Positions 15,685 through 50,388 of a stretch of 64,000 bases of DNA are shown piece after piece (within the stretch, counting starts at the first letter, position 1; the number at the start of each line of letters is the position of its first letter). Source of the DNA: a virus; IMG/VR virus record IMGVR_UViG_3300008266_000002; one strand, written 5' to 3'. Below the pieces are notes generated by a model. That model made no database searches. It was not told the origin of the DNA and was given only the letters and a program-made list of their open reading frames with translations. The translations under genes were made by a program, and so were the position numbers.

Positions 15685-16580
15685 GTTTTATTACAATGAC
15701 TGGATTGGGACAGTCTGGAGGATTATGTTCCCAACTTCAAACCTACGCAAGTTTAGCCGCTGTTGCAAAAGCAAATAACAAAAGAATTGTTTTTACTCAG
15801 GAAAGTGTAGAAGGAGATTTAGTTAAGTATCATACGGGTGAGTATTATCAAACAAATATACGTATACTCGATTTATTAGATATCGATTATGAGATTGTAC
15901 CAAAATCCTTTATAGAGAGCTTTGACAGTAAACACATCAATTATCATACAACAACCTATGATGAAACTCTATTCAATCTAGACGCAAGTATTAACTACAA
16001 CTTAGTGGGTAGATTTGATCTTTACACCTATTGGTATAATAGTATTGGTGATGAGGTAGCAGAATGGAAATTTAAAAGCAATCTGCAACAACAAGCAGAA
16101 AAGAGAATGGAGAGAATTCAAGAGACTTTTGGCAATAATAATCCTACTGTGAGTTTGCATGTTAGGCGTGGGGATTACTTACTACCAAATCATCACTTTG
16201 CAATCTTGGATAATGATTATTACGAGACAGCAATAATTAAACATTTCTGGCATCCAGCAGAGTATAACTTTGTTGTTTTTTCGAATGATATTGAGTATTG
16301 TAGGAATATGATTGATGGGGATAATGTCTATTTTGTAGAGCCTGACGGAGGAGAAAAGGTATGTTCCGATTCGGAAAAAGAGGACTTGGTGTTACTGAGT
16401 TTGTGTGATCACCATATCATAGCAAATAGCTCGTATTCTTGGTGGGCAGCTTACCTATGCAAAAATAAAAATAAAAAAATAATATGTCCAACAAACTGGC
16501 TAAAGGCATACCATCCTTCTTCTTGGATTAATGGTAGATACTACCCATCAAATTGGATCAACATTGATAACATAGCATAA
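15681..16580 (+). CDS. GT11 alpha-1,2-fucosyltransferase-like glycosyltransferase
   Basis: HVRRGDY, FSNDI, IIANSSYSWWAAYL. Confidence 0.9.
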   Translation: MSFITMTGLGQSGGLCSQLQTYASLAAVAKANNKRIVFTQESVEGDLVKYHTGEYYQTNIRILDLLDIDYEIVPKSFIESFDSKHINYHTTTYDETLFNLDASINYNLVGRFDLYTYWYNSIGDEVAEWKFKSNLQQQAEKRMERIQETFGNNNPTVSLHVRRGDYLLPNHHFAILDNDYYETAIIKHFWHPAEYNFVVFSNDIEYCRNMIDGDNVYFVEPDGGEKVCSDSEKEDLVLLSLCDHHIIANSSYSWWAAYLCKNKNKKIICPTNWLKAYHPSSWINGRYYPSNWINIDNIA

Positions 16581-16581
16581 T

Positions 16582-17544
16582 ATGAAAAAAGTAGTTTACG
16601 TAACCGGTTGTTTAGGTTTTATTGGTTCTTATATAACAAGAAAGTGTTTGGATAAGGGTTGGTATGTAAAAGGAGTTGATAAAATTACATACGCAGCTAA
16701 CAAAGATTTGTTAGCAGAATTTAAAAAATATAAGAACTTCTCATTTGTTCATTGTGATATAAATGACCTGAAGTTCTTATATGATTGTGATTTTGTTATT
16801 AATACCGCTGCTGAAACGCATGTTGGCAATAGTATTATGAGCAGTCAAGAGTTTGTAAAATCGAATGTGGATGGTGTGCATAACTTACTAGAGTTGATAA
16901 AGAATCATCGAGGAGAGAATATAAATAAGCCAACTCTAATACATTTTAGTACGGATGAGGTTTATGGAGATATTGTGAATGGTGCTCACACAGAGGATCA
17001 CTTACTAAAACCAAGCAATCCGTATTCAGCCACTAAGGCAGCGGCAGATATGTTAGTAATGGCTTGGGGAAGAACACACGATATACCGTACATGATTATT
17101 AGACCAACTAACAACTATGGAATAGGTCAGTATGTTGAAAAGCTCATTCCGAAAGCAGTGAAGTGTTTAAACTTAGGACGTAAGATTCCACTTCATAACA
17201 ATGGAACTCCATATCGCAATTGGCTGCATGCAGACGACACGGCAGAAGCCGTCATCACTCTGATCGAAAAGGGTCAAGTAGGCGAAATCTACAATGTAGC
17301 AGGAGGTTTTGAGCAACAAAACGTAAACACTGTTCATAAAATAGTAGAGGCTTTTTATGGTGCATCGTTACCTTCTGATGCTGTTGACACACATATTGAT
17401 TTCTCATGCAATAGACCTGGACAAGATGTTCGATATGCGTTAGATGATGCTAAAATTAAAGCACTAGGTTGGTCACCTAAAAAGTTGTTTATTGAAGAAA
17501 TAAGTAGTATAGTTGATTATTATAAACATAAATTTATTTGGTAA
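16582..17544 (+). CDS. NDP-sugar 4,6-dehydratase (RmlB-like)
   Basis: TGCLGFIG, DKITYA, AAETHV, STDEVYG, YSATKAA, RPGQD.RY. Confidence 0.9.
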   Translation: MKKVVYVTGCLGFIGSYITRKCLDKGWYVKGVDKITYAANKDLLAEFKKYKNFSFVHCDINDLKFLYDCDFVINTAAETHVGNSIMSSQEFVKSNVDGVHNLLELIKNHRGENINKPTLIHFSTDEVYGDIVNGAHTEDHLLKPSNPYSATKAAADMLVMAWGRTHDIPYMIIRPTNNYGIGQYVEKLIPKAVKCLNLGRKIPLHNNGTPYRNWLHADDTAEAVITLIEKGQVGEIYNVAGGFEQQNVNTVHKIVEAFYGASLPSDAVDTHIDFSCNRPGQDVRYALDDAKIKALGWSPKKLFIEEISSIVDYYKHKFIW

Positions 17545-18344
17545 TGAATACAAGAGAATTTAAGTGTACAAAAATACTTACGGACCTTATTGAAAATGAA
17601 GGTCTAGTAGGTATTAAAACTAGTTTTGAGGATGAAGGCGCTTTGTTTAATGAGACTATACGACTCAAAGAAGTGTGTAATCAAGCTAAAACAAAAATAA
17701 CTTTAAAAATTGGTGGTCCAGAAGCAATTCGTGATCTAAAAGACTCAACAGTAATTGGAGTTAAGGGATTGGTTGCTCCAATGGTTGAGTCGGAATTTGG
17801 CTTGAAGAAGTTTATCCTAGCAACTAAGACACATATTCCGCAAGACATTCTAACGTCCTTGCAGCTCAATGTTAATATAGAAACGATTACGGCAGTTTCT
17901 AACGCTGAGAAGATGTTAGATACACCAGAAGCTAGTGAATTGTATGGTGTAACAGTTGGTCGTGTTGATTTAGTTTCTTCTATGGGAAAGGATCGTTTGT
18001 ATGTTAATAGTGATGAGGTATACAAGATGGCTCGTACTGTTTTTACAAAAGCTAAAGAAAAAGGATTAAAAGCGTGTTTAGGCGGAGCTATTTCAGTTGA
18101 TTCGTTGGACTTTCTAAAAAAACTTAATTCAGAAGGCTTATTGGATAAATTTGAAACACGCTATGCAATTTTCGATCCGTCTATCACATTAAAGAATTTA
18201 TCCAGAGCTTTGTCTAAGGCGCAGATGTTTGAATACGAGTGGCTTATGTACAAGCACGAACTCTATACGTCAATGGCTAATCAAGATATCCAGCGTATCA
18301 AAATGATTCAAGATCGTATTAACCAATCTGTATCATTCAAGTAA
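17544..18344 (+). CDS. HpcH/HpaI aldolase-citrate lyase family protein
   Basis: K..FEDEG, KIGGPEA, APMVES, NIET, VGRVDL. Confidence 0.75.
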   Translation: MNTREFKCTKILTDLIENEGLVGIKTSFEDEGALFNETIRLKEVCNQAKTKITLKIGGPEAIRDLKDSTVIGVKGLVAPMVESEFGLKKFILATKTHIPQDILTSLQLNVNIETITAVSNAEKMLDTPEASELYGVTVGRVDLVSSMGKDRLYVNSDEVYKMARTVFTKAKEKGLKACLGGAISVDSLDFLKKLNSEGLLDKFETRYAIFDPSITLKNLSRALSKAQMFEYEWLMYKHELYTSMANQDIQRIKMIQDRINQSVSFK

Positions 18345-18979
18345 TGAAAGTACTTATAACTGGTGGTTCGGGAGGTATTGGTAGTGCGATAATGAAGGCA
18401 TTTGTGGATGGCGGACATGAAGTTTATGCTCCTAATAGAAGAGAACTAGATTTGTTAAAACCTATCAAACTTTCCGAATGTGATTTTGAGATTGTAATCA
18501 ATTGTGCAGGGATAAACCCACTCAAGTCGATTTGTGATATCGAGGATGAGGAAGTACTAAGAGTTAATTATCTTTCCGCATTGGAGATTGTTCAGCAGTG
18601 TATTCCTTACATGGTCACAAAGGGTTACGGGAGATTTATCAATATTGGTAGTATATGGATCGATATAGCAAAACCAAGTAGACTTGCTTATAGTGCTAGT
18701 AAAAACGCTCTTCATGCTCTAACAAAAGCAATCACTGCTGAATATGGACCATATAATATACTAGCAAACACAGTCTCACCGGGTTTTATTGCAACTGATC
18801 TTACATTTAAAAATAATACTGATGAAGATATTAAACGAATATCACAAACCATACCTGTCAGACGTTTAGGAATGCCGGAGGAGGTTGCAAAGCTGGTATA
18901 TCAGCTTACAGTAGATAACAATTACATTAGTGGACAAAATATCATAATAGACGGAGGCTTTTCATGCACAACATATTAA
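18344..18979 (+). CDS. Short-chain dehydrogenase/reductase
   Basis: TGGSGGIG, NCAG, YSASK, SPGFIAT, IDGG. Confidence 0.92.
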   Translation: MKVLITGGSGGIGSAIMKAFVDGGHEVYAPNRRELDLLKPIKLSECDFEIVINCAGINPLKSICDIEDEEVLRVNYLSALEIVQQCIPYMVTKGYGRFINIGSIWIDIAKPSRLAYSASKNALHALTKAITAEYGPYNILANTVSPGFIATDLTFKNNTDEDIKRISQTIPVRRLGMPEEVAKLVYQLTVDNNYISGQNIIIDGGFSCTTY

Positions 18980-19977
18980 CAATACCATCAAACATAATAA
19001 ACTACACGGTTCAGTATGCAAACTCGTTAGCTGAAGTGGAAGAGTTTATTGAGAGTCAAAAAGCTATCGTAGTAATTGATGAACTAGTAGCACAGTTATA
19101 CCCAACCTTATGTACACCTGATAGCATACGGATATCTGCTATCGAAACTAACAAAACACTGCAGGGCGCTTCGGATCTATCTCAGTTGCTTATCGACCGT
19201 AGAGCAAACATCAAAACCAAACTAATAGCCATTGGAGGTGGTATTATTCAGGATTTAGTTGGCTTTACTGCATCCATATACTGTAGAGGAATTGACTACA
19301 TTTATATACCAACAACTCTACTATCTCAAGCTGATAGCTGTATAGGTGGAAAAACCTCAATCAATCATGCCAATAGAAAAAATATATTAGGTACCTTCTA
19401 TCCACCAGAAACCATCATCTTATATCCTGGCTTTGTAAACACACTAACTACTACAGACTACTTCAGTGGATGGGGGGAGATTTATAAATTTCACATATTA
19501 CAAGGCATGATGAGTGATTTTTCGCTTTCTAATGCAGAATCCTCAATTATTAATGGTTTATCATATAAAGCGAATATTTTGGCTTTAGACGAGTTTGATC
19601 AGGGTGAGCGAAGGTATCTCAACTTTGGACATACCTTTGGTCATGCCTTAGAAACAACATCCAATCATGCGATTCCTCACGGTCTTGCTGTGATACTTGG
19701 TTGCATGATTGCTACGAAAGTTGCCTATAAGATGGGGTACGTTGTAAAAGATCATAACCTTATTCTGAGTGAAGGAATACGTTTAATTCGTCTTAGTGGT
19801 TTAAAGTTGCAGCAGTCTTGGTTTGAATCTACACAATTACTCGAAGTTGTAAAGTCCGACAAAAAAAGTACCGGAGAGTTGGTTATGGTGCTTGTTGATA
19901 GTAAACCAAATTTGGTAAATATAAAAAATTTGGGTATAGTTATAGAATCACTAAATGAAGTTTATGAGAGTATCTGA
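18964..19977 (+). CDS. 3-dehydroquinate synthase-like / sugar-phosphate cyclase
   Basis: GGGIIQD, PTTLLSQADSCIGGK, KN.LG.FYPP, LNFGHTFGHALE, HG.AV. Confidence 0.88.
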   Translation: MHNILTIPSNIINYTVQYANSLAEVEEFIESQKAIVVIDELVAQLYPTLCTPDSIRISAIETNKTLQGASDLSQLLIDRRANIKTKLIAIGGGIIQDLVGFTASIYCRGIDYIYIPTTLLSQADSCIGGKTSINHANRKNILGTFYPPETIILYPGFVNTLTTTDYFSGWGEIYKFHILQGMMSDFSLSNAESSIINGLSYKANILALDEFDQGERRYLNFGHTFGHALETTSNHAIPHGLAVILGCMIATKVAYKMGYVVKDHNLILSEGIRLIRLSGLKLQQSWFESTQLLEVVKSDKKSTGELVMVLVDSKPNLVNIKNLGIVIESLNEVYESI

Positions 19978-21694
19978 TTACGTTATTCAATTTTTGCGAG
20001 ATCGCTATGGTGTAGATACAGTCTTTACTGTGTCTGGTGGTGGTTGTATTTTTCTTGTTGATTCCTTGGGAAAGACGGATGGTGTAAAGTATGTTGCAAC
20101 TCATCACGAGCAAGCAGCTTCAATAGCAGCTGAAGGTTATGCACGTATCAACAATAAACTAGGAGCTTGTGTGGTGACTAGTGGTCCTGGTGGGACAAAT
20201 GCTATCACTGGCACTCTGTGCAGTTGGCTCGATTCAATCCCTGTTATTGTTATTAGTGGTCAAGTTAATAAGGAGATGACAACTAACTACACTGAACTCC
20301 CTCTGAGACAGCTTGGTGATCAGGAATTCAATATTGTCGAATCAGTAAAAAACATGACCAAATACGCTGTACAAGTTAATGATCCACTTGATATAAAATA
20401 TCATATGGAAAAAGCTTGTCAGTTAGCAACTTCAGGACGGCCTGGCCCAGTGTGGATTGATATTCCACTAAATGTTCAATCAGCAGATATTAATCCTGAT
20501 AGTCTTACTGGTTGTGATGAGCCAACACTAACATACGAACCCTCTACAGAGGATATAGATAAGTTGTTGTTTAATTGGCAAAAAGCAAAGAAGCCTTTAA
20601 TGATTGTGGGTAATGGTATTAGGTTAAGTGGTGGTGTTAAACTTTTATATGATGTATTAGCTAAAACTAATATACCAGTAATATCAGCTGTTAATGGCAA
20701 CGACTTAGTAAACGAAGATTATCCTCAATACTATGGTAGATTTGGTACACATGCTCAAATCTGTGCAAATAAGCTATTAAGTGAGTGTGATTTTGTTTTA
20801 GCAGTCGGTACTAGATTGTATGTAAGACAAACAGGGTATAATTTTAAGGGATTTGCTCAGCAAGCCTATAAAGTTCATGTCGATATCGATGCAGCCGAGT
20901 TAAATAAACCAACCCTTTTTACTGATTTAAAAATTCAATCCGATGCAACGAGTTTTTTGACTAGTGTACTAAAATCAGAGCTTCCAGCCACCGATGGATC
21001 TTGGATAGAGTCTTGCAATCATCTCAAACAAAACTCACCAAAGGTTTTACAAAGACATAGAGATAACAGCAGCTATGTGAGTCATTATGCTTTTGTTGAA
21101 CAACTCTCAGCTGTACTACCAAGAGACCATCATGTGATAACGAGTGACGGCTCAGCTAATGTGGTGACAATGCAAGTGTTGGATCTCCATAATGATCAAA
21201 GGCTTATTACAAATACAGGATGTGCTCCAATGGGTTATGGACTTCCAGCTGCCTTGGGAGCAGCAATCCATCATAATATTGTGTGTTTAGAAGGTGATGG
21301 AAGTTTACATTTGAATATACATGAACTTCAAACCATGAAACACTACAATCTGCCGATCAAGCTTATATTACTAAATAATGATGGTTATACTTCGATAAAA
21401 ATTTCACAAAAGGCTTTTTTTAATGGGTTTTATGTAGCATCAGAAAAGGGTAGTGGAGTATCCTTTCCAAGTTTTGAAAAAGTGATTAAGGCATATGATC
21501 TACCATATATGTGCATCAAATCAAACAAATCCATCCAACCAATATTGAATGAGTTTTTGTCTCAAGAAGGTCCGTGTGTGCTTGAGGTATTTACAGATCC
21601 AGATGAGTTTCATGAACCTAAGGTAGTAGCTAAGCTAGATGAATATGGTAAATTTATTCCCGGAGAATTAAAAAACATACAATGGATCAAATGA
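19964..21694 (+). CDS. Thiamine-diphosphate enzyme, acetolactate synthase-like (YerE-like)
   Basis: HHEQAA..AAEGY, TSGPGGTN, RPGPVW.DIP, GDGS...NN ThDP motif. Confidence 0.9.
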   Translation: MRVSDYVIQFLRDRYGVDTVFTVSGGGCIFLVDSLGKTDGVKYVATHHEQAASIAAEGYARINNKLGACVVTSGPGGTNAITGTLCSWLDSIPVIVISGQVNKEMTTNYTELPLRQLGDQEFNIVESVKNMTKYAVQVNDPLDIKYHMEKACQLATSGRPGPVWIDIPLNVQSADINPDSLTGCDEPTLTYEPSTEDIDKLLFNWQKAKKPLMIVGNGIRLSGGVKLLYDVLAKTNIPVISAVNGNDLVNEDYPQYYGRFGTHAQICANKLLSECDFVLAVGTRLYVRQTGYNFKGFAQQAYKVHVDIDAAELNKPTLFTDLKIQSDATSFLTSVLKSELPATDGSWIESCNHLKQNSPKVLQRHRDNSSYVSHYAFVEQLSAVLPRDHHVITSDGSANVVTMQVLDLHNDQRLITNTGCAPMGYGLPAALGAAIHHNIVCLEGDGSLHLNIHELQTMKHYNLPIKLILLNNDGYTSIKISQKAFFNGFYVASEKGSGVSFPSFEKVIKAYDLPYMCIKSNKSIQPILNEFLSQEGPCVLEVFTDPDEFHEPKVVAKLDEYGKFIPGELKNIQWIK

Positions 21695-22470
21695 AAGTAT
21701 TGATAACTGGTGGAAGTGGGTATATTGCACAGAGCCTATTGAACGGATTAGATTGCAAAAAATATGATATCACTATCGTCGATCGAAGTCATTTTGACTT
21801 AACAAACTATAATGCTGTGTGTAATTTCTTTAGCGAGAAATATTTTGACGTCGTGATACATACAGCTATAGTTGGTGGTAATCGCCTAAAAGAAGAGGAT
21901 GATTCGATTATTAGGCAAAACCTTGATATGTACTACAATCTTATGAATAACAACCAGCATTTTGGAAAGTTTATAAGTTTTGGATCTGGTGCTGAGCTTG
22001 GTTGGCCTACTACTCCATATGGATATAGTAAACGTATTATTGCTGAATCTATGTCAAAACGGGACAATTGTCTTAATCTAAGAATTTTTGCAGTATTTGA
22101 TGAGAATGAAGAGGACCGTAGGTTTATCAAAAGCAATATAAAGCGATATCTAAACAGAGAAGATATGCTTGTACATGAGGATAAGTATATGGATTTCTTT
22201 TATATGCAGGACTTAATCACTTTAGTGGATTATCATCTTTGCCGGCAAGACTGGCTCTTTTCAGAGATTGATTGTAGGTATACCGATTGTTATAAACTAT
22301 CAGAAATAGCCTCTATAATAAACAAACTAGATAATTACAAAGTTGATATTTGTGTTGCACAATCGGAAGGAAAGCCTTATGTTGGAAATTATGTAGGGTT
22401 ACCTATCTCTCTAGTTGGATTAGAGAATGGTATCAGAAATGTTTATAAAACACTCAAAGCAAATATATGA
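21691..22470 (+). CDS. NAD-dependent epimerase/reductase
   Basis: ITGGSGYI, FGSGAE, YGYSK. Confidence 0.85.
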   Translation: MKVLITGGSGYIAQSLLNGLDCKKYDITIVDRSHFDLTNYNAVCNFFSEKYFDVVIHTAIVGGNRLKEEDDSIIRQNLDMYYNLMNNNQHFGKFISFGSGAELGWPTTPYGYSKRIIAESMSKRDNCLNLRIFAVFDENEEDRRFIKSNIKRYLNREDMLVHEDKYMDFFYMQDLITLVDYHLCRQDWLFSEIDCRYTDCYKLSEIASIINKLDNYKVDICVAQSEGKPYVGNYVGLPISLVGLENGIRNVYKTLKANI

Positions 22471-23765
22471 AACCAATAACATTTTGCATTGCTTCAGCCA
22501 AAAACGAAAAGGAGTACACTAAACTTTTATTAAAATCTTTAAAAGATCATACCCAATTTAATACACACGAAGTTTTAATCTTTATTGACTCGGATAATCA
22601 AAATACATACGAAGAACTCTGTGATTTACAGAAGGACCATGATAATATAAAAATTTATCGAAACGAAAGTGCTTTTCCGATAGGAAGTCAACGTAACGTG
22701 ACCCTCATGTTCAATGCTGCAAGTAATGATGTGGTATGTTACCTGCAATCAGATATGGTTGTTGGAAAGAATTTTGATGAGCATATTAACAACAACATTG
22801 ATGAGAATACTGTATTGTCCTGTGCTCGAATAGAGCCACCCCTACATCCAGCATCTCCTGAGAAGGTTGTAAAGGATTTTGGTATAACACCCGACACCTT
22901 TAATTACGATTCTTTTAATAAGTTTGTTGACGAGTTACAAGCTGAAAATCGACCAAACATGGTAGGTCACTTTGCACCGTTTGCTGTATACAGATCAACT
23001 TGGATTGATCGACTTGGTGGATTTGATACTCAGTTTAGATGCTCACGTGAGGATTCCGATACAATAATAAGAATGGAGCTGTGTGGATTGAGTATGATCC
23101 AATCATGGAATGCTTGTGTTTATCATTTTACTTGTGTTTCCAGCAGAGGTGATGGTTGGTTCAAAAAGAATGAAGATGCTGATTACAAAAATGCACTCCA
23201 GACTCAAGCCGATCTCCAAGAGCTAAAGAGATTCATAAGAAAGTGGGGATATTTTGGTCATCATCCAAAGCCAGTATATGATGTAACCTTTAAGATTGAA
23301 ATGGACCATTATGCCGACTTTAATCTACTAAAAATGATCGAACCTTATTGTACACAAATGGTTCTTTCGGATAGTAAGGTTGCACACCAACTAGCATCGC
23401 AGCTTGAATTCGAAGCACATTATTTTAGTAATCTACGTTGGAATTATACTCAAGATCATTGGAATAAGGTTCAATATCTCTTTAATCCTACCGACTTCTA
23501 CAAACGTATTAATTCAAATCAAGAAGAAGTAGGAGATATAATTATATCGTTCAAATTCTCACAACTCATAAGTAACTGGAATATCCCCGATACTCAAGGA
23601 TTGTTTCAGAATATTCACGAAGTAGTTAACCAAAGTGAAATTGGTGTTTATGAGGCCGGTCCTTTTATTATTGATATTAGGGCTAAGAATGACTTAGGTT
23701 CTAAGTATGCTAAGCATAGAGATATAGATTTACTTCTTAATGAACAAAAGTTTGAGTTTATATAA
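22467..23765 (+). CDS. Glycosyltransferase family 2
   Basis: ITFCI..KNE, YLQSDM, GGFD..F..SREDSD, VYHF. Confidence 0.85.
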   Translation: MKPITFCIASAKNEKEYTKLLLKSLKDHTQFNTHEVLIFIDSDNQNTYEELCDLQKDHDNIKIYRNESAFPIGSQRNVTLMFNAASNDVVCYLQSDMVVGKNFDEHINNNIDENTVLSCARIEPPLHPASPEKVVKDFGITPDTFNYDSFNKFVDELQAENRPNMVGHFAPFAVYRSTWIDRLGGFDTQFRCSREDSDTIIRMELCGLSMIQSWNACVYHFTCVSSRGDGWFKKNEDADYKNALQTQADLQELKRFIRKWGYFGHHPKPVYDVTFKIEMDHYADFNLLKMIEPYCTQMVLSDSKVAHQLASQLEFEAHYFSNLRWNYTQDHWNKVQYLFNPTDFYKRINSNQEEVGDIIISFKFSQLISNWNIPDTQGLFQNIHEVVNQSEIGVYEAGPFIIDIRAKNDLGSKYAKHRDIDLLLNEQKFEFI

Positions 23766-24010
23766 TGCAATATTTTTTACTAATGCCAGGTGACACAGAA
23801 GAGGATGTATTAAACGAAGCAAACCTTCTTGGAGAAGATTCGTTTGGTACATTCTGGGCTGGTAGTGGATTAACAACTTTGATGAAGATTGTTGACTCGC
23901 ATCCAGAAGTCTTACCAATGATAAGAATACGAACTGACATGGATCAGCGATCATATACAATAGAGCAGTTTTTAACAAACATATCAAAACTCAAGATTAG
24001 AACAAGATGA
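23765..24010 (+). CDS. Hypothetical protein
   Basis: Translationally coupled to GT2. Confidence 0.6.
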   Translation: MQYFLLMPGDTEEDVLNEANLLGEDSFGTFWAGSGLTTLMKIVDSHPEVLPMIRIRTDMDQRSYTIEQFLTNISKLKIRTR

Positions 24011-42392: not shown

Positions 42393-42626
42393 ATGTACAC
42401 TTCAATCGGTCAAGCACTTAAAGCCCTTAGTTACGGAACCTTTGTTAATGAGTCAGGTGAGTATTGCAGAATATCAAGATACTATCTCAAAAACACTCTC
42501 AGATTCCAAATTGTTTTTAGCGAGAATAATAGCATTACTGCTACTAGACCTGCCATCAACACCGTGTCCGAGAGTAAAGTTCTGAAAATATTAAATTCCG
42601 AAAATTTTAAAAATATTTGTGCTTAA
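42393..42626 (+). CDS. Hypothetical early protein
   Basis: Single-gene unit behind promoter. Confidence 0.6.
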   Translation: MYTSIGQALKALSYGTFVNESGEYCRISRYYLKNTLRFQIVFSENNSITATRPAINTVSESKVLKILNSENFKNICA

Positions 42627-42629
42627 CCG

Positions 42630-42668
42630 TTGCTAGTCTGGATCCGAGTCGTGATCTTTAGGTATAAT
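42630..42668 (+). promoter_or_regulatory. Strong early-type promoter
   Basis: aaccgTTG-N20-GATCTTTA-gg-TATAAT. Confidence 0.75.
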
Positions 42669-42684
42669 CAAAAATAGATACATT

Positions 42685-42846
42685 ATGAAAATTTTAAAAA
42701 CAAATTCTCGTATTGACAATTCAAAAGGATATCTAATTACAAAAAAGGAATATTCTGTTTCAATTGTAAAAATGTTAAAATTCAATTTTGCGTTAATTAA
42801 AATTGGAAATCAAATTTTTACAACCGATTTAGCAAATTTAAAATAA
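42685..42846 (+). CDS. Small hypothetical early protein (53 aa, not in ORF track)
   Basis: ATG directly after promoter; open to TAA at 42846. Confidence 0.5.
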   Translation: MKILKTNSRIDNSKGYLITKKEYSVSIVKMLKFNFALIKIGNQIFTTDLANLK

Positions 42847-42872
42847 TAATCATAATCAAAAATAGAACAGTT

Positions 42873-43091
42873 ATGAATAATCCAAGTAAAATTCAAGATC
42901 TTAAATCAGTTATCGGTAAAAGAGTTTCACAGAATCAATCTCCTACTGGTACTGCCAAGTTAATTAAGATTAAAGGTGCCTACTGTATCTTTGAAAGTCT
43001 TCAAAGTGAGTACATTAAGAAGCCTAAGTCTATGGTTGGTGTTAAATATAATGTCCCAACTGCGTATGCCTGGAATGCTTACTTTTTTTAA
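42873..43091 (+). CDS. Hypothetical early protein
   Basis: Leader ataatcaaaaataga duplicated from 42664. Confidence 0.6.
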   Translation: MNNPSKIQDLKSVIGKRVSQNQSPTGTAKLIKIKGAYCIFESLQSEYIKKPKSMVGVKYNVPTAYAWNAYFF

Positions 43092-43109
43092 AAATATTTC
43101 CTCAAACAG

Positions 43110-43146
43110 TTGTCTAGGAAGAAAATTAGTACTATCTTTCATAATA
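43110..43146 (+). promoter_or_regulatory. Early-type promoter
   Basis: TTG-N20-TATCTTTC followed by (AC)n leader. Confidence 0.6.
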
Positions 43147-43164
43147 ATTCAAAAACACACACAC

Positions 43165-43398
43165 ATGCGAAACGCAATCTTCACCGTTACTTGTCCGAAA
43201 TCTAATGAGGTCGTTAAACAATACGAACTCGAATATGAAACCCTTCAAGGACTAGAAGCCGACTTCTTGGAAAGTCGTCAGGTTTGGTCTGAGTATATGG
43301 TGACTGTTGACGCTGATGAGTGTCATCTTTCTGCTCCTCTCACTTGGAGAGAAGAGGTATGCATTGGTCAGGTGGCGGAATTGGTAGACGCTAAGTAA
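43165..43398 (+). CDS. Hypothetical protein whose 3' end runs into a tRNA-like element
   Basis: MRNAIF start after ACACACACAC; the last 10 codons plus stop are the tRNA-like 5' arm. Confidence 0.55.
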   Translation: MRNAIFTVTCPKSNEVVKQYELEYETLQGLEADFLESRQVWSEYMVTVDADECHLSAPLTWREEVCIGQVAELVDAK

Positions 43399-43478
43399 AT
43401 GGGACAAGAAGAAGTTGCTGGAGGACATTCCCAAGTCAAGCAACATTATTCATATGGGTTCGAATCCCATCCTGACTA
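43366..43478 (+). ncRNA. tRNA-like element with expanded, non-canonical anticodon region (113 nt)
   Basis: Acceptor ggtcagg/cctgact, D-arm tggcggaattggtagacgc, T-arm atgggttcgaatcccat; ~60 nt middle with no 7-nt anticodon loop. Confidence 0.75.
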
Positions 43479-43570
43479 CAAGGAGTTCCAATCTCAAGTG
43501 CTGATTAGTTTAAAGACTGTTCGATGAGCCCATCAAAATTGGTGACATCTTGGAAAGACAAGAGCTTTAA

Positions 43571-43641
43571 TGACTTATGGTGTAATGGTAGCACTACAGA
43601 TTTTGATTCTGTCTGTCTTGGTTCGAATCCAGGTAGGTCAA
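43571..43641 (+). tRNA. tRNA-Gln(TTG)
   Basis: Acceptor tgactta/taggtca, anticodon stem acaga-ttTTGat-tctgt, T-arm cttggttcgaatccagg; CCA not encoded. Confidence 0.93.
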
Positions 43642-43655
43642 CAAAAACAACAACA

Positions 43656-43973
43656 ATGGACAAAGTAATCAAAGACGGTAAAGTAGCAGTAATCATATCA
43701 ACTAACTGGGGATCTGGTTGGTCAAGTTGGAATCCACAATATCCACAATTACTATTTGAACCAAAGATAGTGCAGATGATATTGGATGATAAACGAGAAG
43801 AGATCACACAGCAATGGTTAATTGATAACTTGGGACTACCTGATGTTTGGATACCTTCACCTGATACCTTAAAGATAGTATGGGTACCACAAGGATCTAG
43901 ATTCTTGATAGACGAGTACGATGGGTCAGAGACACTAATATTGGAGGAAGACTTAAATTTGCATACAGCTTAA
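43656..43973 (+). CDS. Conserved phage hypothetical protein
   Basis: DGKVAVI.S...G.GWS.WN...LLFEP...W.P.G..F.I.EYDGSE; true start downstream of the tRNA. Confidence 0.7.
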   Translation: MDKVIKDGKVAVIISTNWGSGWSSWNPQYPQLLFEPKIVQMILDDKREEITQQWLIDNLGLPDVWIPSPDTLKIVWVPQGSRFLIDEYDGSETLILEEDLNLHTA

Positions 43974-43991
43974 AAAAAATAGGCTAAAGTG

Positions 43992-44029
43992 TTGCTTATT
44001 GTTAAAAAAGGGTGATCTTTAGATATAAT
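43992..44029 (+). promoter_or_regulatory. Strong early-type promoter
   Basis: TTG-N19-GATCTTTA-ga-TATAAT. Confidence 0.72.
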
Positions 44030-44044
44030 CAAACATACACAGTT

Positions 44045-44626
44045 ATGACACACGAAATTATTAAAACAGATGATTATCTACTTGTTGTAGATGATTCAGA
44101 AATTAAAGAAGGTGATTACCGAATGAACATTCAAAGAGGTTATGTAAAATTAGTTGATGATGCACCTGAATACTATAACCAAAGGAACGATGTTTTTAAG
44201 AGGGTAATTGCTCACCTACCACTCAACAACTCACCAATTTTAGAGGGTATAGATTTATTACCACCACTTGAACAAGAAGATGATGTTGAGAAGATGGCAG
44301 AAGAAGAAGCAAAGAAGTTGCACGATAAAGGCAAACACGAAGACTATGATATATACAATCAACTTGTTTATGAAGATAAAGAGATGATTAAAATTGGCTA
44401 CAACAAAGCCAAAGAGAAGTACAGATGGTCTGATAAAGATGTAATAAGAATAGTAGAAAAAAGTAGAGAGACAGGACTTACTGCTGAATACCTCCTATTA
44501 TCATTATCACAACCAAAATATCCTATTGCTTTTGAACAAGGAAACGCAGTTAATGATAAAACTTACACATCAGTAATAAGAAGAACTGATGGTTTTACTT
44601 TGTGGATCGGAAAATACATTTACTAA
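44045..44626 (+). CDS. Hypothetical early protein
   Basis: MTHEIIKT start; IAHLPL...LEG..LLPP. Confidence 0.65.
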   Translation: MTHEIIKTDDYLLVVDDSEIKEGDYRMNIQRGYVKLVDDAPEYYNQRNDVFKRVIAHLPLNNSPILEGIDLLPPLEQEDDVEKMAEEEAKKLHDKGKHEDYDIYNQLVYEDKEMIKIGYNKAKEKYRWSDKDVIRIVEKSRETGLTAEYLLLSLSQPKYPIAFEQGNAVNDKTYTSVIRRTDGFTLWIGKYIY

Positions 44627-44627
44627 T

Positions 44628-44840
44628 ATGGAAAAACAACAAACACCAGTACAGTGGCTGTTTAATCAAATGGAACAAATGCAGTATTATATTGGCAATG
44701 ATCTCTATGCAGCATACAAAGAGGCTCTAGAAATAGAAAGGAACTCAATACAAAGTGCATACAATCAAGGTGAATTTGATTGTGGTTGTAATGGTACAGC
44801 AGAGGACTATTACAATAAAACCTATAATGAAAAACTATGA
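44628..44840 (+). CDS. Hypothetical phage protein
   Basis: QTPVQWL...EALE.E...I..AY..G....EDYYNKTY. Confidence 0.65.
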   Translation: MEKQQTPVQWLFNQMEQMQYYIGNDLYAAYKEALEIERNSIQSAYNQGEFDCGCNGTAEDYYNKTYNEKL

Positions 44841-45052
44841 ATGAAGAGGATGTAGTTTTATTACAAACTTATATGATTGGTTTCTCTGATGAATTGAAAG
44901 GTGAAACAAGGGAATTCCAAGACCCAATTTTAATGAGAGCGTATGAGTTGGGAAAAGTTGATGCCTTTGTTGGTGATGATGTTAGAAGCGTAGATTATCA
45001 ATCTGATGAACATTTATTAAAACGAATTAAAAATTTGAATATTTATATATAG
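44837..45052 (+). CDS. Hypothetical protein
   Basis: Coupled ORF. Confidence 0.55.
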   Translation: MNEEDVVLLQTYMIGFSDELKGETREFQDPILMRAYELGKVDAFVGDDVRSVDYQSDEHLLKRIKNLNIYI

Positions 45053-45072
45053 AATAAAAACTATTTAAGAAT

Positions 45073-45552
45073 ATGGAACTAAGAAAATTTATAAAGACCA
45101 CCATACGTGAATATTTGAATGAAAATATTCAAAATAATAAAAACATCAAAACAATAAATTTTGATGAATTATATCATGGAACAACAATGGATAGGTTTGA
45201 AGGTATATCAAAAAACGGATTTTCAATCGAAAAACAAGGTGAAAAAAGTGGTCATGGTAGTGTTCTTGGTGTGTCAATGACAGCCAATATAGAAATTGCA
45301 AAAGAACATGCAGAATGGGCGGTGGAAAAGTTTGGGGGTGAAGAATATATTGTAACTATTAATTCTAAATCATTAAAAATATTGAGTGGTAGTGATTTTG
45401 CACGTATAGATAATGACTACAATAAAGCGTTTATTTTATATAAAAATAGATTAATTGATGGTGTAGAGTTATGTGATATGGAAACTGGTGATGGATGTGA
45501 AGAATTTGAGGTTTTTGTATTTAATATTAATAAATTAAATCAATTACTTTAA
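45073..45552 (+). CDS. Putative ADP-ribosyltransferase-fold protein with shared leader
   Basis: Leader MELRKFIKTTIREYLNE; LYHGT...GF...GVSMT....A..HA...DG....E.EVFVF. Confidence 0.6.
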   Translation: MELRKFIKTTIREYLNENIQNNKNIKTINFDELYHGTTMDRFEGISKNGFSIEKQGEKSGHGSVLGVSMTANIEIAKEHAEWAVEKFGGEEYIVTINSKSLKILSGSDFARIDNDYNKAFILYKNRLIDGVELCDMETGDGCEEFEVFVFNINKLNQLL

Positions 45553-45717
45553 TTGTGTGGTGAAAAAATAAAACATAAAAATTATAACCACGAAACTTAA
45601 TACGAAGCGATAACGTAGCATTGCATATAACGTCCGATGATAAACAATCGTTTTAATGTTGTTTATCATTTGTTATATTTAGTTGAAAAATCATTTTACA
45701 AAAAAAAGAATAAAAAT

Positions 45718-45924
45718 ATGGAAAACAAAATTGAGTGGGGAAAATTAGGACCACATTACAAAAGAAAGTTTATGATTCCTGTTGGTCGTAGGAAGAGATG
45801 GTGGGAATTTTGGAAGAAGGATGAAAGTAAAAAGGCGATAGAAAAACTTATGTCTCAATATAAACAGGAATTAATATTGGGTGAGGATGGTGATATTTTT
45901 ATTCCATCAAATGACTCAAAATGA
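45718..45924 (+). CDS. Cassette A hypothetical protein
   Basis: MENKIEWG...KRWWEFWK...DIFIPS; stop lies within cassette-end repeat. Confidence 0.6.
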   Translation: MENKIEWGKLGPHYKRKFMIPVGRRKRWWEFWKKDESKKAIEKLMSQYKQELILGEDGDIFIPSNDSK

Positions 45925-46054
45925 TTTTTTTCAATTGAATATAACGTTGAGCGTATGTGCTGTGCAGCCTTGCACGTACTTTCAACTTACAAAACAGTTT
46001 ATTGGCTGCATAGCATATACGCATTATTGTGCGTAGTGCTTTAATAATTAAACA

Positions 46055-46240
46055 ATGAGAACACCAGACGAAATAATTGACGAAATAATGAAACTGGCAA
46101 TCGAAATTGATGCACTAAAAAAAATACATTCAGAATTGCATTCAGTTGACGATTCAGAAGAATGGGAACAATCGTTTTTAACTTTATCTGTTAAAAATTC
46201 AAGATTAGATGCATTAAGGTGGGTAATGTCTTTTTCTTAG
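46055..46240 (+). CDS. Cassette B hypothetical protein
   Basis: MRTPDEI...LRWVM; stop overlaps cassette-end repeat. Confidence 0.6.
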   Translation: MRTPDEIIDEIMKLAIEIDALKKIHSELHSVDDSEEWEQSFLTLSVKNSRLDALRWVMSFS

Positions 46241-46324
46241 CATTACGCACAACGTTTTCGGGCTTTGTGTCCGTGCCGTAATAGAAGTAGAAAAGTTCAA
46301 TTAATAACTAAAATTAAATAAAAG

Positions 46325-46666
46325 ATGAAAAGCTCAATTAAAGAACTAAAGCAGGCATGGCACAAAACCCGTGTTATGTGCAGCCTTTTTTACAAAAATG
46401 TTAAGAAAGACGTAAACGAAAGACGAGTTAAGTATTGGTTTCAACAATATTTTGAAGACAATGATTTGCACTCTGGAATATGGCAATTACACCATATCGG
46501 AGTTGTAACAAGTAAAACAGATATTGTTGTAACCATTACACTTGGAAGACCAGGATTATTGATTGGTAAAGGTGGACGAACTATTGACGAAATAACTAAA
46601 CGTCTTTCTGATTGGTTAGAAAAACCTGTCAAAATTAAGATAAATGAGTATAGTGTGTGGTCGTAA
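46325..46666 (+). CDS. Cassette C: KH-domain protein resembling the ribosomal protein uS3 KH domain
   Basis: VTITLGRPGLLIGKGGRTIDEI..RL....KPVKIKINE (GxxG loop). Confidence 0.75.
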   Translation: MKSSIKELKQAWHKTRVMCSLFYKNVKKDVNERRVKYWFQQYFEDNDLHSGIWQLHHIGVVTSKTDIVVTITLGRPGLLIGKGGRTIDEITKRLSDWLEKPVKIKINEYSVWS

Positions 46667-46721
46667 GGTTGCACATAACGGTTCTCAGATATACGCAGTT
46701 CTAACGCAAAATTAAATAGAT

Positions 46722-46907
46722 ATGAAAAACTTAAATAATACAGACAAAACTTCGGACAACGCAGAAAAAGAATTGCGTATATCTGATGTTAGCGGACAGT
46801 TAGTTGATTTTCTAACTTGGTATATACACGAATCAGAATTTAGTAAAGATACTTATAGTATTAAATTAATTGTTGATGAATATTTAAAATCAACTAATTT
46901 ACGCTAA
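46722..46907 (+). CDS. Cassette D hypothetical protein
   Basis: Starts in hairpin loop; stop TAA inside CGCTAAC. Confidence 0.6.
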   Translation: MKNLNNTDKTSDNAEKELRISDVSGQLVDFLTWYIHESEFSKDTYSIKLIVDEYLKSTNLR

Positions 46908-46944
46908 CTAGGATATACACACCACTCTATAACAACAAAAACAA

Positions 46945-47301
46945 ATGGAAATAAGAAGCATCACATACTCACAAGTGCAAGAGGAATTTAGTCATATCAA
47001 ACCAGACTTACTAGATACACAAGCCGTTTACTTTGGATGCTTTATAGATAATGAACTTGCTGGGATCGTATCATATGTAGAACACCCACACGTCATATAC
47101 CTTTGTCATGCATATGTGAAATCACAATACCGAAATGCAGGGATATATAAAATGCTATGGAATTACAGGGACATTCATATTAAAGATAGTAACAAACAAA
47201 CATATGCCCATTGCAATGTAGATAGCTTAAAGCACTTTATTAACAATGGGTATAGTATAGAAAAGGCCCTCTTTAAAGTAGTAAAGCACTCCTCCCAATA
47301 A
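46945..47301 (+). CDS. GNAT acetyltransferase
   Basis: YFGCF....LAGIV...AYVKSQYRNAGIYKML...N..S...F...GY. Confidence 0.8.
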   Translation: MEIRSITYSQVQEEFSHIKPDLLDTQAVYFGCFIDNELAGIVSYVEHPHVIYLCHAYVKSQYRNAGIYKMLWNYRDIHIKDSNKQTYAHCNVDSLKHFINNGYSIEKALFKVVKHSSQ

Positions 47302-47442
47302 TAACATAATAACCCAGTATAACACCCAGTATAGTAGAGGGGGGTCAATAAGGATAAACACTGCGTAATAGAATATCACTAATTAGCTTAGCGGTATATT
47401 TATAAGAGAAATGCATAACGGCTAAAAAAAGAACAACAGTAA

Positions 47443-47781
47443 ATGAAATCACAAACAACATCCAAAAGTAAACTGGCTGAGCTTCGAAAAATAATCAGGG
47501 AGCATGTACGTAAGGTAATACTCAAAGAGCAGGGATCTCTGTACCAAGAAAATAATCAAGAGGATATTATAGACTACTATAAGTCAAGAAACATCATATC
47601 GGTTGGCATGAAAACTAATTTACTATCTAACATGAAGAGTAGATATGATTTTAAGGTCAATGGTGATGAGATCTACTTTTTTGATAAGGGATTCCACTTC
47701 GCAACATTATTCAAAGAAGGTAGCTTTTATGAATTGAAGCATGATGGGACATTAGACCAGTATGGATGGAGAAAGCCTTAA
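47443..47781 (+). CDS. Hypothetical protein with shared leader (LRKIIREHVRKVILKE)
   Basis: Preceded by TATTTATA at 47397. Confidence 0.6.
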   Translation: MKSQTTSKSKLAELRKIIREHVRKVILKEQGSLYQENNQEDIIDYYKSRNIISVGMKTNLLSNMKSRYDFKVNGDEIYFFDKGFHFATLFKEGSFYELKHDGTLDQYGWRKP

Positions 47782-47811
47782 AGAGTACTTTTTATAATAG
47801 TATAAACAAAC

Positions 47812-47843
47812 AAGGGAGTAACAACAAACATTACTCCCTTTTT
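47812..47843 (+). terminator. Intrinsic terminator
   Basis: aagggagtaa/ttactccctt stem plus T-tract. Confidence 0.7.
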
Positions 47844-48120
47844 CTATGCCCCTATAGTGTAACAATAGCCCATAGTATATACGATAGTACTCAGTATAGT
47901 ATACAGTATAGTAGACGGGGTAATTGGGGTAGATATAAGATAGACACTTTTATAGCAGGTTACTTAGGTCGTATAAAATAGACATTATGTGGGGAGGTCC
48001 GGAAATGTCTATCTTAGAAAATTCGCGTTTTGATACACAAACACATCGAGACGCGAAATTTTTTTTGTATAGGAATCAACACTTTTTGTCGATCGTCTAC
48101 CCCCCGCTATCCACACAATC
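47844..48120. repeat. Non-coding boundary module 1
   Basis: cagtatagta repeats (47892, 47904, also 47327); CGCG hairpin 48022-48057; AA-T8-G-TATAGG-A-ATC-A-ACACTT 48057-48084; C-run. Confidence 0.6.
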
Positions 48121-48144
48121 AATACAAAAAATATTATAAAACCG

Positions 48145-48183
48145 TTGCCTACCCGGATCAAAGGCCGGACCTTTAGGTATAAT
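48145..48183 (+). promoter_or_regulatory. Strong early-type promoter
   Basis: aaccgTTG-N20-GACCTTTA-gg-TATAAT. Confidence 0.78.
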
Positions 48184-48199
48184 CAAAAATGAAACAGTT

Positions 48200-48451
48200 A
48201 TGAATATTAGAACATTTGATCGCCAAGCCCTAATGAGTGACAATACTAGAGAAGAGATCCTTGATATTATTTTTGAATTACAGATCCTTGACAACTGTAG
48301 ACCTAATGCCTTGATCAATATGATGTACGGGTTGTTTGATGGGTTTGACTATAGTGAGATGATTAGTAATCATTCCATCCTCGATGAGTTAGAAAGTGAG
48401 TTGGTTGATAGGATTGTTACTGTTGCTGAGACTATCCAAAAATATTTTTAA
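48200..48451 (+). CDS. Hypothetical early protein
   Basis: Single-gene unit behind promoter. Confidence 0.65.
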   Translation: MNIRTFDRQALMSDNTREEILDIIFELQILDNCRPNALINMMYGLFDGFDYSEMISNHSILDELESELVDRIVTVAETIQKYF

Positions 48452-48469
48452 AATAATTTTCCCAAACTG

Positions 48470-48507
48470 TTGCCTAGTGTTTAAAAAGGCGGATCTTTAG
48501 ATATAAC
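48470..48507 (+). promoter_or_regulatory. Strong early-type promoter
   Basis: aactgTTG-N19-GATCTTTA-ga-TATAAC. Confidence 0.75.
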
Positions 48508-48525
48508 AATTAAACAACATAAATT

Positions 48526-48741
48526 ATGAAAAACATTGAAGTAGGTTCCATCGTTAGATATGAAAATGGTTATTACAGAGTAAGTGCCGATAAAGGGTAC
48601 GGTGACAAGAGATGGGTTAACTTGAAGGCTGTATTTGGTAGTAAGATATACCACAAACAAGTTCCTGCCAGCCAGGTAGTTGAAGCTCAAGAAGAATGGT
48701 ATGCTAGTTGGACTAGATCAGAGTCTTACATGTGCATGTAA
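48526..48741 (+). CDS. Hypothetical early protein
   Basis: Single-gene unit behind promoter. Confidence 0.65.
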   Translation: MKNIEVGSIVRYENGYYRVSADKGYGDKRWVNLKAVFGSKIYHKQVPASQVVEAQEEWYASWTRSESYMCM

Positions 48742-48770
48742 AAATAATTTAAAAAAAATCCGGTTAACTG

Positions 48771-48809
48771 TTGCCAGTCTGGATAATGTACCCGATCTTT
48801 AGATATAAT
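48771..48809 (+). promoter_or_regulatory. Strong early-type promoter
   Basis: aactgTTG-N20-GATCTTTA-ga-TATAAT. Confidence 0.78.
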
Positions 48810-48829
48810 CAATTAAAAACGATAACATC

Positions 48830-49030
48830 ATGAAACAGTTAGTTAATAAAGCCCAGAAAGTATTTGATCAGTGTATTATGAATCTAAGACTGCAGGGTAA
48901 AAGTCACAAAGAAGCTCAGGACACTGTACTAGTGATTGTTAGTGAGTTCAAGAAGCCTAACATGTCTAAAGAGGACCTTGTTGATATGATCCTTACCCTT
49001 GAGATGACTTTCCTCGGAAAAAAGTTTTAA
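48830..49030 (+). CDS. Hypothetical early protein
   Basis: Single-gene unit behind promoter. Confidence 0.6.
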   Translation: MKQLVNKAQKVFDQCIMNLRLQGKSHKEAQDTVLVIVSEFKKPNMSKEDLVDMILTLEMTFLGKKF

Positions 49031-49049
49031 AAAAAAATCCGGTTAACTG

Positions 49050-49110
49050 TTGCCTACCGGTAAAAAAGGGTGATCTTTAAGTATAGGAAAAAAGGAAACG
49101 AGTTCTTTAA
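49050..49110 (+). promoter_or_regulatory. Early-type promoter plus boxA-like element
   Basis: TTG-N19-GATCTTTA; agttctttaa (49101-49110) just upstream of the tRNA-like gene. Confidence 0.6.
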
Positions 49111-49116
49111 TAATAC

Positions 49117-49186
49117 AGTCAGGTGGTGTAATTGGTAACATAGGTCTTAATTGGCTTGGATGCAGGTTCGAATCCTGTCCTGACTA
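49117..49186 (+). ncRNA. tRNA-like element with defective anticodon arm (70 nt)
   Basis: Acceptor agtcagg/cctgact, T-arm gcaggttcgaatcctgt; weak aggtc/ggctt stem closes a 6-nt loop (ttaatt). Confidence 0.75.
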
Positions 49187-49227
49187 CAAAATTAACAATA
49201 TTCACACACACAATAAAATTTAAGTCT

Positions 49228-50388
49228 ATGTCAAACGTTATTATTGCTAAAGTACAAATGGGCGCTAATGCCAAAGGTGGTCAATCTGTTAGAGCTTATG
49301 AAGCTGTTACTGGAATGGACATCACAAAAGAGATAGTTTATGCCACTTTGAAGAACGCCTACGATGCTGGTAATTGGTTAGAAAACTCTGCTGGTAAGTG
49401 GAAGCAAGTAAGTATTGCTGATGCAGAGCGCTTCTTGAAAGACCTTGAGAATCCCGTCAAATCTTCCGTCTCACAAGAGAAAAATGAAATGGCGATGTTT
49501 CTATCCACTTGCTCTGAGAAACGCCCAGAGAGCTTATTCTGTGAAGATTTAACTTGGAAATTCTTATGCCGCTCAGTGATGAGAGGTAAGAACATATTGC
49601 TTACAGGTCCTACTGGTTGTGGTAAATCACAGACTGCCATTGCGGTAGCAAAGGCCTTAGATAAACCCTTCTTCTATGTTAACTTGGGTGCTACTCAGGA
49701 TCCAAGAGGTACTCTAATTGGTAATACTCACTTCAGTAAAGATGCTGGTACTTACTTCAACGAGTCTGCCTTTGTTAAGGCAATACAAACCCCTGACACT
49801 GTGATACTTCTAGACGAGGTGTCAAGAGCACATCCAGAGGCTTGGAACATTCTTATGACAGTACTTGATCCAGGTCAAAGATACTTGAGATTAGATGAGG
49901 CTGTTAACACTCCTACAGTAAAGGTAGCAGAAGGTGTAAGCTTCATTGGTACTGCAAACATCGGTAACGAGTATACTGCAGTAAGAGTAATGGACAGAGC
50001 GTTACTTGATAGGTTTGTAATCGCAGAGATTCCTTACTTGACTATCGCTCAAGAGACCCAGTTAATCAGTCAGTTATACCCTACCTTGGATGTCACTCTT
50101 GCTAAGAATCTTGCAGAGATTGCTACTCTTACTAGAGCTGAGGTGAAGTCTGACAGTGCTAGAATACAGACTCCAATCTCCACAAGATCGATAGTAGAGA
50201 TGGCTGGTTTGATTAACGATGGCTTCTCCCTTACAGAATGTGCCGAGGTTAGTATCTACCCACTATACTCTCAGGATGGTGGTCTACAATCAGAAAGGAC
50301 CTTTGTAAAGCAATTGGTACAGAAGTTTGTTCCAGATGGAACTAGTGATAGCTTGATGGGTGATGAGAGTGTTGAGAATCCTTTCTAA
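49228..50388 (+). CDS. MoxR/CbbQ-family AAA+ ATPase
   Basis: Walker A GPTGCGKS, Walker B ILLDEVSR, FIGTAN.G..Y, ALLDRF, ISTR; start MSNV downstream of the tRNA-like element. Confidence 0.93.
   Translation: MSNVIIAKVQMGANAKGGQSVRAYEAVTGMDITKEIVYATLKNAYDAGNWLENSAGKWKQVSIADAERFLKDLENPVKSSVSQEKNEMAMFLSTCSEKRPESLFCEDLTWKFLCRSVMRGKNILLTGPTGCGKSQTAIAVAKALDKPFFYVNLGATQDPRGTLIGNTHFSKDAGTYFNESAFVKAIQTPDTVILLDEVSRAHPEAWNILMTVLDPGQRYLRLDEAVNTPTVKVAEGVSFIGTANIGNEYTAVRVMDRALLDRFVIAEIPYLTIAQETQLISQLYPTLDVTLAKNLAEIATLTRAEVKSDSARIQTPISTRSIVEMAGLINDGFSLTECAEVSIYPLYSQDGGLQSERTFVKQLVQKFVPDGTSDSLMGDESVENPF

Follow-up and report, generated by a model that had tools for sequence, protein, structure and literature searches.

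Integrons are a textbook bacterial gene-capture device. In a 64,000-nucleotide (nt) stretch of viral DNA (IMG/VR record IMGVR_UViG_3300008266_000002; hereafter the window, with positions counted from its first letter), we found a row of small open reading frames (ORFs) interspersed with hairpins between 45073 and 46944, which we interpret, with a probability of roughly 80%, as an orphan array of four mobile gene cassettes and one preceding remnant, belonging to an integron-like system of large aquatic phages. This interpretation draws on the anatomy of the array, on homology break-points at AAC in related viral loci, on the natural gain or loss of two cassettes in lake metagenomes and on the linkage of such arrays to a recombinase gene in relatives. 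A broader proposition, to which we would give slightly better than even odds, is that large aquatic phages possess an integron equivalent of their own, active in present-day lakes, with an insertion-free Xer-like enzyme, sites formed by folding of the single-stranded coding strand and placed before the gene, arms private to each cassette and a G.T recognition mark at position 11. An original prediction, made from the letters of the window alone, had proposed an integron-like row of mobile gene cassettes, and this core idea was borne out by a 655-nt variant running from AAC to AAC and by break-points at TAAC.

The four hairpins and four offset pairings that had been predicted were all present in the window. 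Hairpin S1 (45637-45669), within the predicted site 45625-45678, has stem arms at 45637-45647 and 45659-45669; S2 (45951-46022) pairs 45951-45969 with 46004-46022, S3 (46259-46371) pairs 46259-46277 with 46354-46371 and has a single bulged base, and S4 (46685-46786) pairs 46685-46702 with 46769-46786. Four long-range helices (45672-45697 with 45918-45945, 46026-46040 with 46239-46253, 46373-46387 with 46665-46679 and 46788-46811 with 46886-46908) each enclose one small ORF, and, in keeping with the predicted single ORF per unit with its stop in the end repeat, every stop codon lies within or touches the 3' arm. AttC-type AAC...GTT hairpins thus separate single ORFs of the same orientation, with four such sites and a terminal core in the window. 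Nine helices of at least 12 Watson-Crick pairs, interrupted by G.T pairs only, were counted in 45600-46920, compared with a mean of 0.39 (maximum 2) in 100 shuffles and a mean of 0.13 (maximum 2) in 46 other 1.3-kb tiles of the window; the set of hairpins and helices is therefore not a product of chance. When the units were circularised and folded as single-stranded DNA, each gave the one long hairpin across the junction that had been forecast, with free energies of -22 to -29 kcal/mol and z-scores of -5.7 to -7.8 relative to shuffled sequence; the gain in stability over the array context was 7-14 kcal/mol. Such folding cannot separate an AAC from a GTT boundary because a long junction hairpin arises either way. 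A search of 42500-50000 against Rfam (E up to 1) returned transfer RNAs (tRNAs) and one chance match only, with no structured-RNA family at the array.

A natural variant of this phage shows a clean gain or loss of two cassettes at AAC cores and thereby fixes where a unit begins and ends. Contigs of four metagenome runs (X1, X2, X6 and X7) were aligned to window 44000-48500, and uncovered parts were read as absence only where a contig bridged the gap. One contig each from X1 and X2 matched 45655-46250 with zero differences and continued at 46906, a joint that skips 655 nt corresponding exactly to cassettes 3 and 4 (46254-46908). The ambiguity of this joint amounts to three letters, AAC, found at both 46251-46253 and 46906-46908, so that the left end lies in the CAAC of cassette 2 and the right end in the AAC of cassette 4. 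The shorter sides of the two joints measured 249 and 255 nt and are therefore too long for a three-letter assembly slip. Contigs from X6 and X7 carried the window form across 46250-46254, with cassette 3 present, and in another X6 contig the match began at 46906 following 88 unlike letters. Junction-precise variation of the kind anticipated by the original prediction therefore exists in X1 and X2, but it is located at AAC and not at GTT. Further joints in X6 (45677 or 45684 to 46675), as well as joints within 44100-44509, were left unused: they had short sides of 23-50 nt in contigs of low likeness, probably from other phages that share the hairpin.

Among phage records, LR756500.1 (462 kb) was the sole similar one, with hairpins that match those of the window, ORFs that do not, and a different order. 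A degenerate pattern of the S1 hairpin retrieved 120 stretches from a collection of viral contigs that does not include the window, and 119 related viral loci entered the comparison. Scanning these loci for sites (TAAC, spacer, hairpin, spacer, GTTA) gave 390 on one strand versus 16 on the other, and up to 18 consecutive units occurred within 8 kb, on a single strand only and each closed by its own arms over 10-26 nt. The S1 hairpin was near-identical in more than 100 viral contigs and is common to very many phages of these lake and freshwater sites. These results support the predicted definition of the sites by structure around a tiny conserved core. The accompanying claim that the sites share almost no primary sequence holds among the four window sites, but across phages each of them represents a conserved hairpin family. 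Summed contig depth over the S1 hairpin (45510-45811) was 250-780 versus 5-40 alongside it in runs X1, X2 and X6.

Comparison of 259 units from the related loci yielded 60 homologous pairs, which revealed to which gene a hairpin is attached. Where the downstream neighbour differed, so did the downstream hairpin (6/6 pairs), whereas a different upstream neighbour left the upstream hairpin unchanged in 8 of 10 pairs. A hairpin is therefore part of the same unit as the ORF that follows it and travels with that ORF, and the unit boundaries first proposed were shifted by one hairpin. In alignments anchored at TAAC, sequences were near-identical up to one side of the core and unrelated beyond it, and for a cassette shared by two loci (L009 and L113) this switch falls at TAAC at both ends. 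Blocks of high identity ended at TAAC or, through the near-universal S1 hairpin, at GTTA; none of 21 blocks started at GTTA. Together, the covariation of neighbours and hairpins and the break-points at TAAC therefore define the mobile unit as spacer, hairpin, GTTA, arm, ORF, arm and TAAC. Discrete cassettes that cross over in AAC are accordingly seen both in the 655-nt variant and in the relatives.

The strand on which these units fold is indicated by their unit helices, which had no part in the detection of sites. In the relatives, these helices contained 186 G.T pairs versus 13 A.C pairs, an excess from which it follows that the coding strand is the folding strand, and position 11 was a G.T pair in 142 of 146 helices. 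The same pair occupies position 11 in cassettes 1-3 of the window and, past a bulge, position 12 in cassette 4. The window therefore displays the complete layout of TAAC, a 4-6-nt spacer, a hairpin, 1-3 nt and GTTA, in arm-closed units carrying this G.T mark.

A tyrosine recombinase had been suggested as the driver, and in relatives such an enzyme is linked to the arrays and probably serves them. A single tyrosine recombinase of 265-268 amino acids (aa) was encoded in three of the five records behind the loci, and in all 14 hairpin-fished loci with a full, adjoining recombinase gene the sites lay upstream on the same strand, with none downstream. The last TAAC of these arrays was followed by a shared AT-rich, hairpin-free sequence, 40-70 nt before the recombinase gene (12 loci aligned), which we read as attI-like. 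The best NCBIfam match of the enzyme was the archaeal XerA model (184 bits, cut-off 220), and its scores were below every curated Xer cut-off; its closest solved relative was likewise XerA (PDB 4A8E, 1.4e-37). Against the integron-integrase model it reached 151 bits (cut-off 265); the match was split, its best segment covering model positions 3-205 of 315, and the match to IntI4 (PDB 2A3V) broke after residue 180. An IntI-type integrase with the IntI-specific additional domain was not found among the window ORFs scanned, nor does the linked enzyme of the relatives appear to be one.

The window array ends on the + strand in a comparable terminal sequence (46909-46944), in which TAAC is followed by TAGGATATA..ACACC and no hairpin. 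It resembles, with moderate likeness, the sequence after the last TAAC in relatives, in the 12 aligned loci and in one further locus, L100. No Xer-like recombinase gene lies directly downstream of this sequence; the position that it holds in relatives is occupied by a GNAT acetyltransferase gene (46945-47301, + strand; Pfam Acetyltransf_1 at 2.9e-6). Locus L100 shows an order of array, attI-like sequence, recombinase remnant and a GNAT gene 70% identical in protein to that of the window, the remnant agreeing with the recombinase start in 14 of its first 16 codons and being cut short by stop codons a few codons later. In this phage the recombinase gene is either gone or located beyond the window; to judge from the remnant before the homologous GNAT gene in L100 and the GNAT gene behind the attI-like end of the window, the gene was evidently lost in this lineage.

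On the coding strand, a cassette extends from the base after one (T/C)AAC core through the C of the next. Its parts, in order, are a 5-nt spacer, the hairpin, GTTA, the 5' arm, the ORF and a 3' arm with TAAC at its end. The arms of one cassette pair together over 10-28 nt with a fixed G.T at position 11, and an excised circle would therefore fold into a single long, imperfect hairpin whose 5' side carries the AAC core. In the mechanism that we propose, the small Xer-like tyrosine recombinase encoded just downstream in relatives would cut this folded coding strand in AAC and would exchange cassettes both among sites and with the attI-like sequence at the array end; here we infer single-stranded DNA as the substrate, a cut inside AAC and this enzyme as the catalyst. 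New events in the phage of the window would need the enzyme in trans.

Part of the same evidence can be read at the level of RNA. If the helices folded only in a polycistronic messenger RNA, controlling its processing, stability or translation, each ORF would be shut by its own long-range stem with hairpins in between, and the mosaic among relatives would reflect structured spacers that evolve more slowly. Such a reading gains from the preference of non-Watson-Crick pairs for G.U on the sense strand, with position 11 fixed as G.U, from the start codons contained in the loops of S3 and S4, and from the KH RNA-binding domain that one cassette encodes. RNA structure was initially, by a slight preference, our main reading, and it was dropped on the evidence of the break-points and the deletion. 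A 655-nt deletion in DNA that ends precisely at two AAC cores, identical TAAC-bounded units in unrelated contexts, and a constant recombinase gene with an attI-like array end would all go unexplained, and no Rfam family matches the region. We now consider RNA folding on its own very unlikely.

Two other accounts accept that cassettes move but differ in how. Shuffling in T4-type phages of promoter/stem-loop (PeSL) cassettes has been ascribed to homologous recombination between promoter/terminator repeats (PMC2839356, PMC4122927), and with this documented precedent, and with S1-type hairpin families that recur many times both in one genome and across genomes and might start homologous exchange, repeated hairpin linkers might recombine here with no dedicated site-specific enzyme. 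Both systems also consist of small accessory ORFs in a hyperplastic part of the phage genome, set apart by repeated stem-loops and reshuffled among related phages. Unlike PeSL cassettes, however, the arrays have private self-pairing unit ends and a dedicated tyrosine recombinase linked to them, together with a specific terminal site, and their break-points sit at a 4-nt core between unrelated flanks in place of exchange by homology across composite repeats of an early promoter and a terminator stem-loop that flank the ORFs (promoter motifs were not scanned for in the window hairpins). In this phage the deletion joint shares AAC only, and the self-pairing arms and the fixed G.T would be given no role, and we regard homologous exchange as likewise very unlikely. 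Extremely unlikely, in our judgement, is the version of the original prediction, with a classical orientation in which the hairpin stands at the 3' end of the ORF and crossover occurs at G/TT past the hairpin. The GTT box is conserved to the same degree as the AAC box, the circular junction folds into a long hairpin likewise, a few high-identity blocks end right after GTTA, and in one locus (L106) the homologue of the cassette 4 ORF body starts at GTTA behind a different N-terminus. Yet the blocks that end at GTTA all extend across the following cassette's S1 hairpin, which is near-universal, the absence of blocks starting there and the covariation of hairpins with the downstream and not the upstream unit do not fit, and the natural deletion joins AAC to AAC; this deletion and the homology break-points of the relatives place the crossover in the AAC before the hairpin.

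Several observations weigh against our interpretation of the window as an integron-like cassette array. A single rearrangement was directly seen in this phage, which may be a gain or a loss, and no circles were observed. As the original prediction had noted, no integrase was found in the window: tblastn with the enzyme of the family gave a best E of 0.2, and Pfam detected no integrase or Phage_integrase domain in 46 of the 49 listed window ORFs of at least 150 aa (three of 180-217 aa were unscanned). Integron integrases are considered to require a special inserted domain for folded single-stranded sites, and the Xer-like enzyme of the relatives, judged by its alignments, appears to be without the insertion on which IntI depends at folded attC sites. 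Among the ten bacterial loci whose recombinases are closest to that of the phages, a single one (L128) has an array beside the gene and another (L131) has one site; that arrays might be common in Bacteroidota chromosomes was left unconfirmed by this one locus in ten. The strand-biased G.T pairs fit RNA structure equally well, and the helices may have an added role as RNA. The box of cassette 2 is a degenerate ATTG instead of GTTG, with an A.C pair beside the core, and part of the array may be decaying. Given the recombinase missing from the window, the lost hairpin of the 159-aa ORF in the remnant and the ATTG of site 2, the array is therefore best described as an orphan that may be partly decayed.

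Classical integrons and clusters of attC sites lacking integron integrases (CALINs) resemble the phage arrays in having single-gene cassettes in one orientation and sites that are imperfect hairpins defined by structure, with only AAC/GTT conserved. In the classical system, cleavage by the integrase takes place on the folded bottom strand, within the AAC triplet between A and C (PMC5027507), and in the phage arrays, too, crossover falls in AAC of the strand that folds. Read on that strand, both consist of cassettes, an attI-like site and a recombinase gene reading away from the array, and orphan arrays without an integrase exist as CALINs do. Unlike in classical integrons, the enzyme linked to the phage arrays is short and Xer-like and appears to be without the IntI-specific insertion, cassette ORFs are sense on the folding strand, the hairpin precedes the gene, and the array is transcribed towards the recombinase. 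Cassette ends pair over 10-28 nt compared with about 7, with an invariant G.T at position 11, and, in contrast to classical attC, the unpaired spacer is asymmetric (5 nt versus 1-3 nt). An attC at the 3' end of the ORF, with the folded strand antisense, is thus not what the arrays contain, as hairpins co-vary with the downstream ORF and G.T pairs mark the sense strand. Of the Xer recombinases that act at dif (XerA and XerC/D), archaeal XerA is nearest to the linked enzyme by sequence and is similar to it in size, but the linked enzyme is encoded at the ends of phage cassette arrays and not used at a chromosomal dif, and its substrates are presumed to be folded hairpins.

Clusters of attC sites on phages have already been published. 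Qi et al. (2023; PMC9892861) described a CALIN with methyltransferase genes in Polaribacter phage P12002L, one attC of which was recombined by IntI1. In P12002L we found sites of the same build as those of the window flanking the DNA methyltransferase gene gp54, with a Mom-like gene adjoining; these sites may or may not coincide with those of Qi et al. A limited literature search found no description of the Xer-like enzyme or of the self-pairing design, which is no proof that none exists. The arrays bring integron logic to virulent-type large phages with three differences, namely a plain Xer-like enzyme, genes inverted relative to their sites, and long self-pairing ends. If the enzyme is shown to work, it would represent a second, independent solution to cassette capture and a mechanism for the fast turnover of small accessory phage genes.

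All parts of the window array lie on the + strand, with the hairpins and arms already described. The remnant (45073-45631) retains the 159-aa ORF (45073-45552; weak PARP/ART-like Pfam match) and a 3' arm that ends at 45628-45631 in the TAAC core, but lacks a hairpin and a 5' arm of its own; three related loci (L002, L072 and L100) hold the homologue of this ORF as an intact cassette, which has a hairpin before the gene and shares the 3' arm. Cassette 1 (45632-45945) comprises a spacer (45632-45636), S1, GTTA (45672-45675), a 68-aa ORF (45718-45924) with a weak DUF7516 match, and TAAC (45942-45945), and L072 also holds a homologous hairpin-plus-ORF unit. Cassette 2 (45946-46253) is built of a spacer (45946-45950), S2, the ATTG box (46026-46029), a 61-aa ORF (46055-46240) and CAAC (46250-46253). 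In cassette 3 (46254-46679), the spacer (46254-46258), S3 and GTTA (46373-46376) are followed by the end of a 113-aa ORF (46325-46666) and by TAAC (46676-46679). This ORF starts at 46325 within the S3 loop, with an alternative in-frame ATG at 46376, and encodes a KH_2 domain (Pfam, 4.6e-8); no relatives of the protein were found among viral contigs. Cassette 4 (46680-46908) has a spacer (46680-46684), S4, GTTA (46788-46791), a 61-aa ORF (46722-46907) that starts within the S4 loop, and TAAC (46905-46908), which contains the stop codon. With boundaries at AAC, the start codons in the S3 and S4 loops therefore lie in the same cassette as their ORFs.

Long-loop hairpins at 46722-46791 in the window and at 5925-6230 and 7290-7619 in locus L010 encode a conserved N-terminal leader of about 25 aa, ending in L-x-I-S-D-V. 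The final V is the in-frame GTT of the GTTA box, and the protein bodies after it are unrelated; in L106, the homologue of the cassette 4 body carries a different N-terminus. The formation of a cassette may therefore involve the joining of a hairpin module to a new gene at GTTA. Beyond the array, a 112-aa ORF (47443-47781) has 61% identity over 82 aa to a cassette ORF of L010 (2667-2957). Upstream it has TAAC plus a spacer only (about 47416) and downstream an ordinary terminator hairpin. This gene, which lies outside the present array, probably once formed part of a cassette.

The window belongs to a large phage. The genes in view are all on the + strand, and they encode a family-A DNA polymerase, a GroEL-type chaperonin, UvdE, ThyX and lysis enzymes, in addition to tRNAs. 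The runs holding the stretch are lake and other freshwater metagenomes, and a Bacteroidota host is plausible. A long cluster for sugar-nucleotide synthesis and glycosyl transfer occupies 7000-24000 and includes GDP-mannose dehydratase, epimerases, DegT aminotransferases, several glycosyltransferases and a thiamine pyrophosphate enzyme.

A repeated motif of about 45 nt (..CTGTTGCC.., about 20 nt, ..GATCTTTAGATATAAT) was found at 43985-44030, 48135-48185, 48465-48510, 48765-48810 and 49045-49090, just ahead of the tRNA at 49117 and of no fewer than five genes. The motif, a probable phage promoter, is absent from the cassette array. On the reverse strand of L002, a promoter-like repeat (TTTGG.TCCCC, about 10 nt, CGTTCGTATATTTAC) was located at 4940-4900, 3760-3700, 2070-2020 and 1760-1720, inside cassettes and before tRNA genes, and some cassettes therefore carry their own promoter. 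Two tRNA-like sequences of the window are unusual. The 113 nt at 43366-43478 scored 36 bits as an Rfam tRNA, had no ARAGORN call and resemble a tRNA with an insertion of about 40 nt, and L002 holds an uninterrupted relative with a long variable arm. At 49117-49187, ARAGORN called a tRNA of unassigned type whose anticodon has only two letters ('aa'; Rfam tRNA score 46 bits), which suggests an odd anticodon loop.

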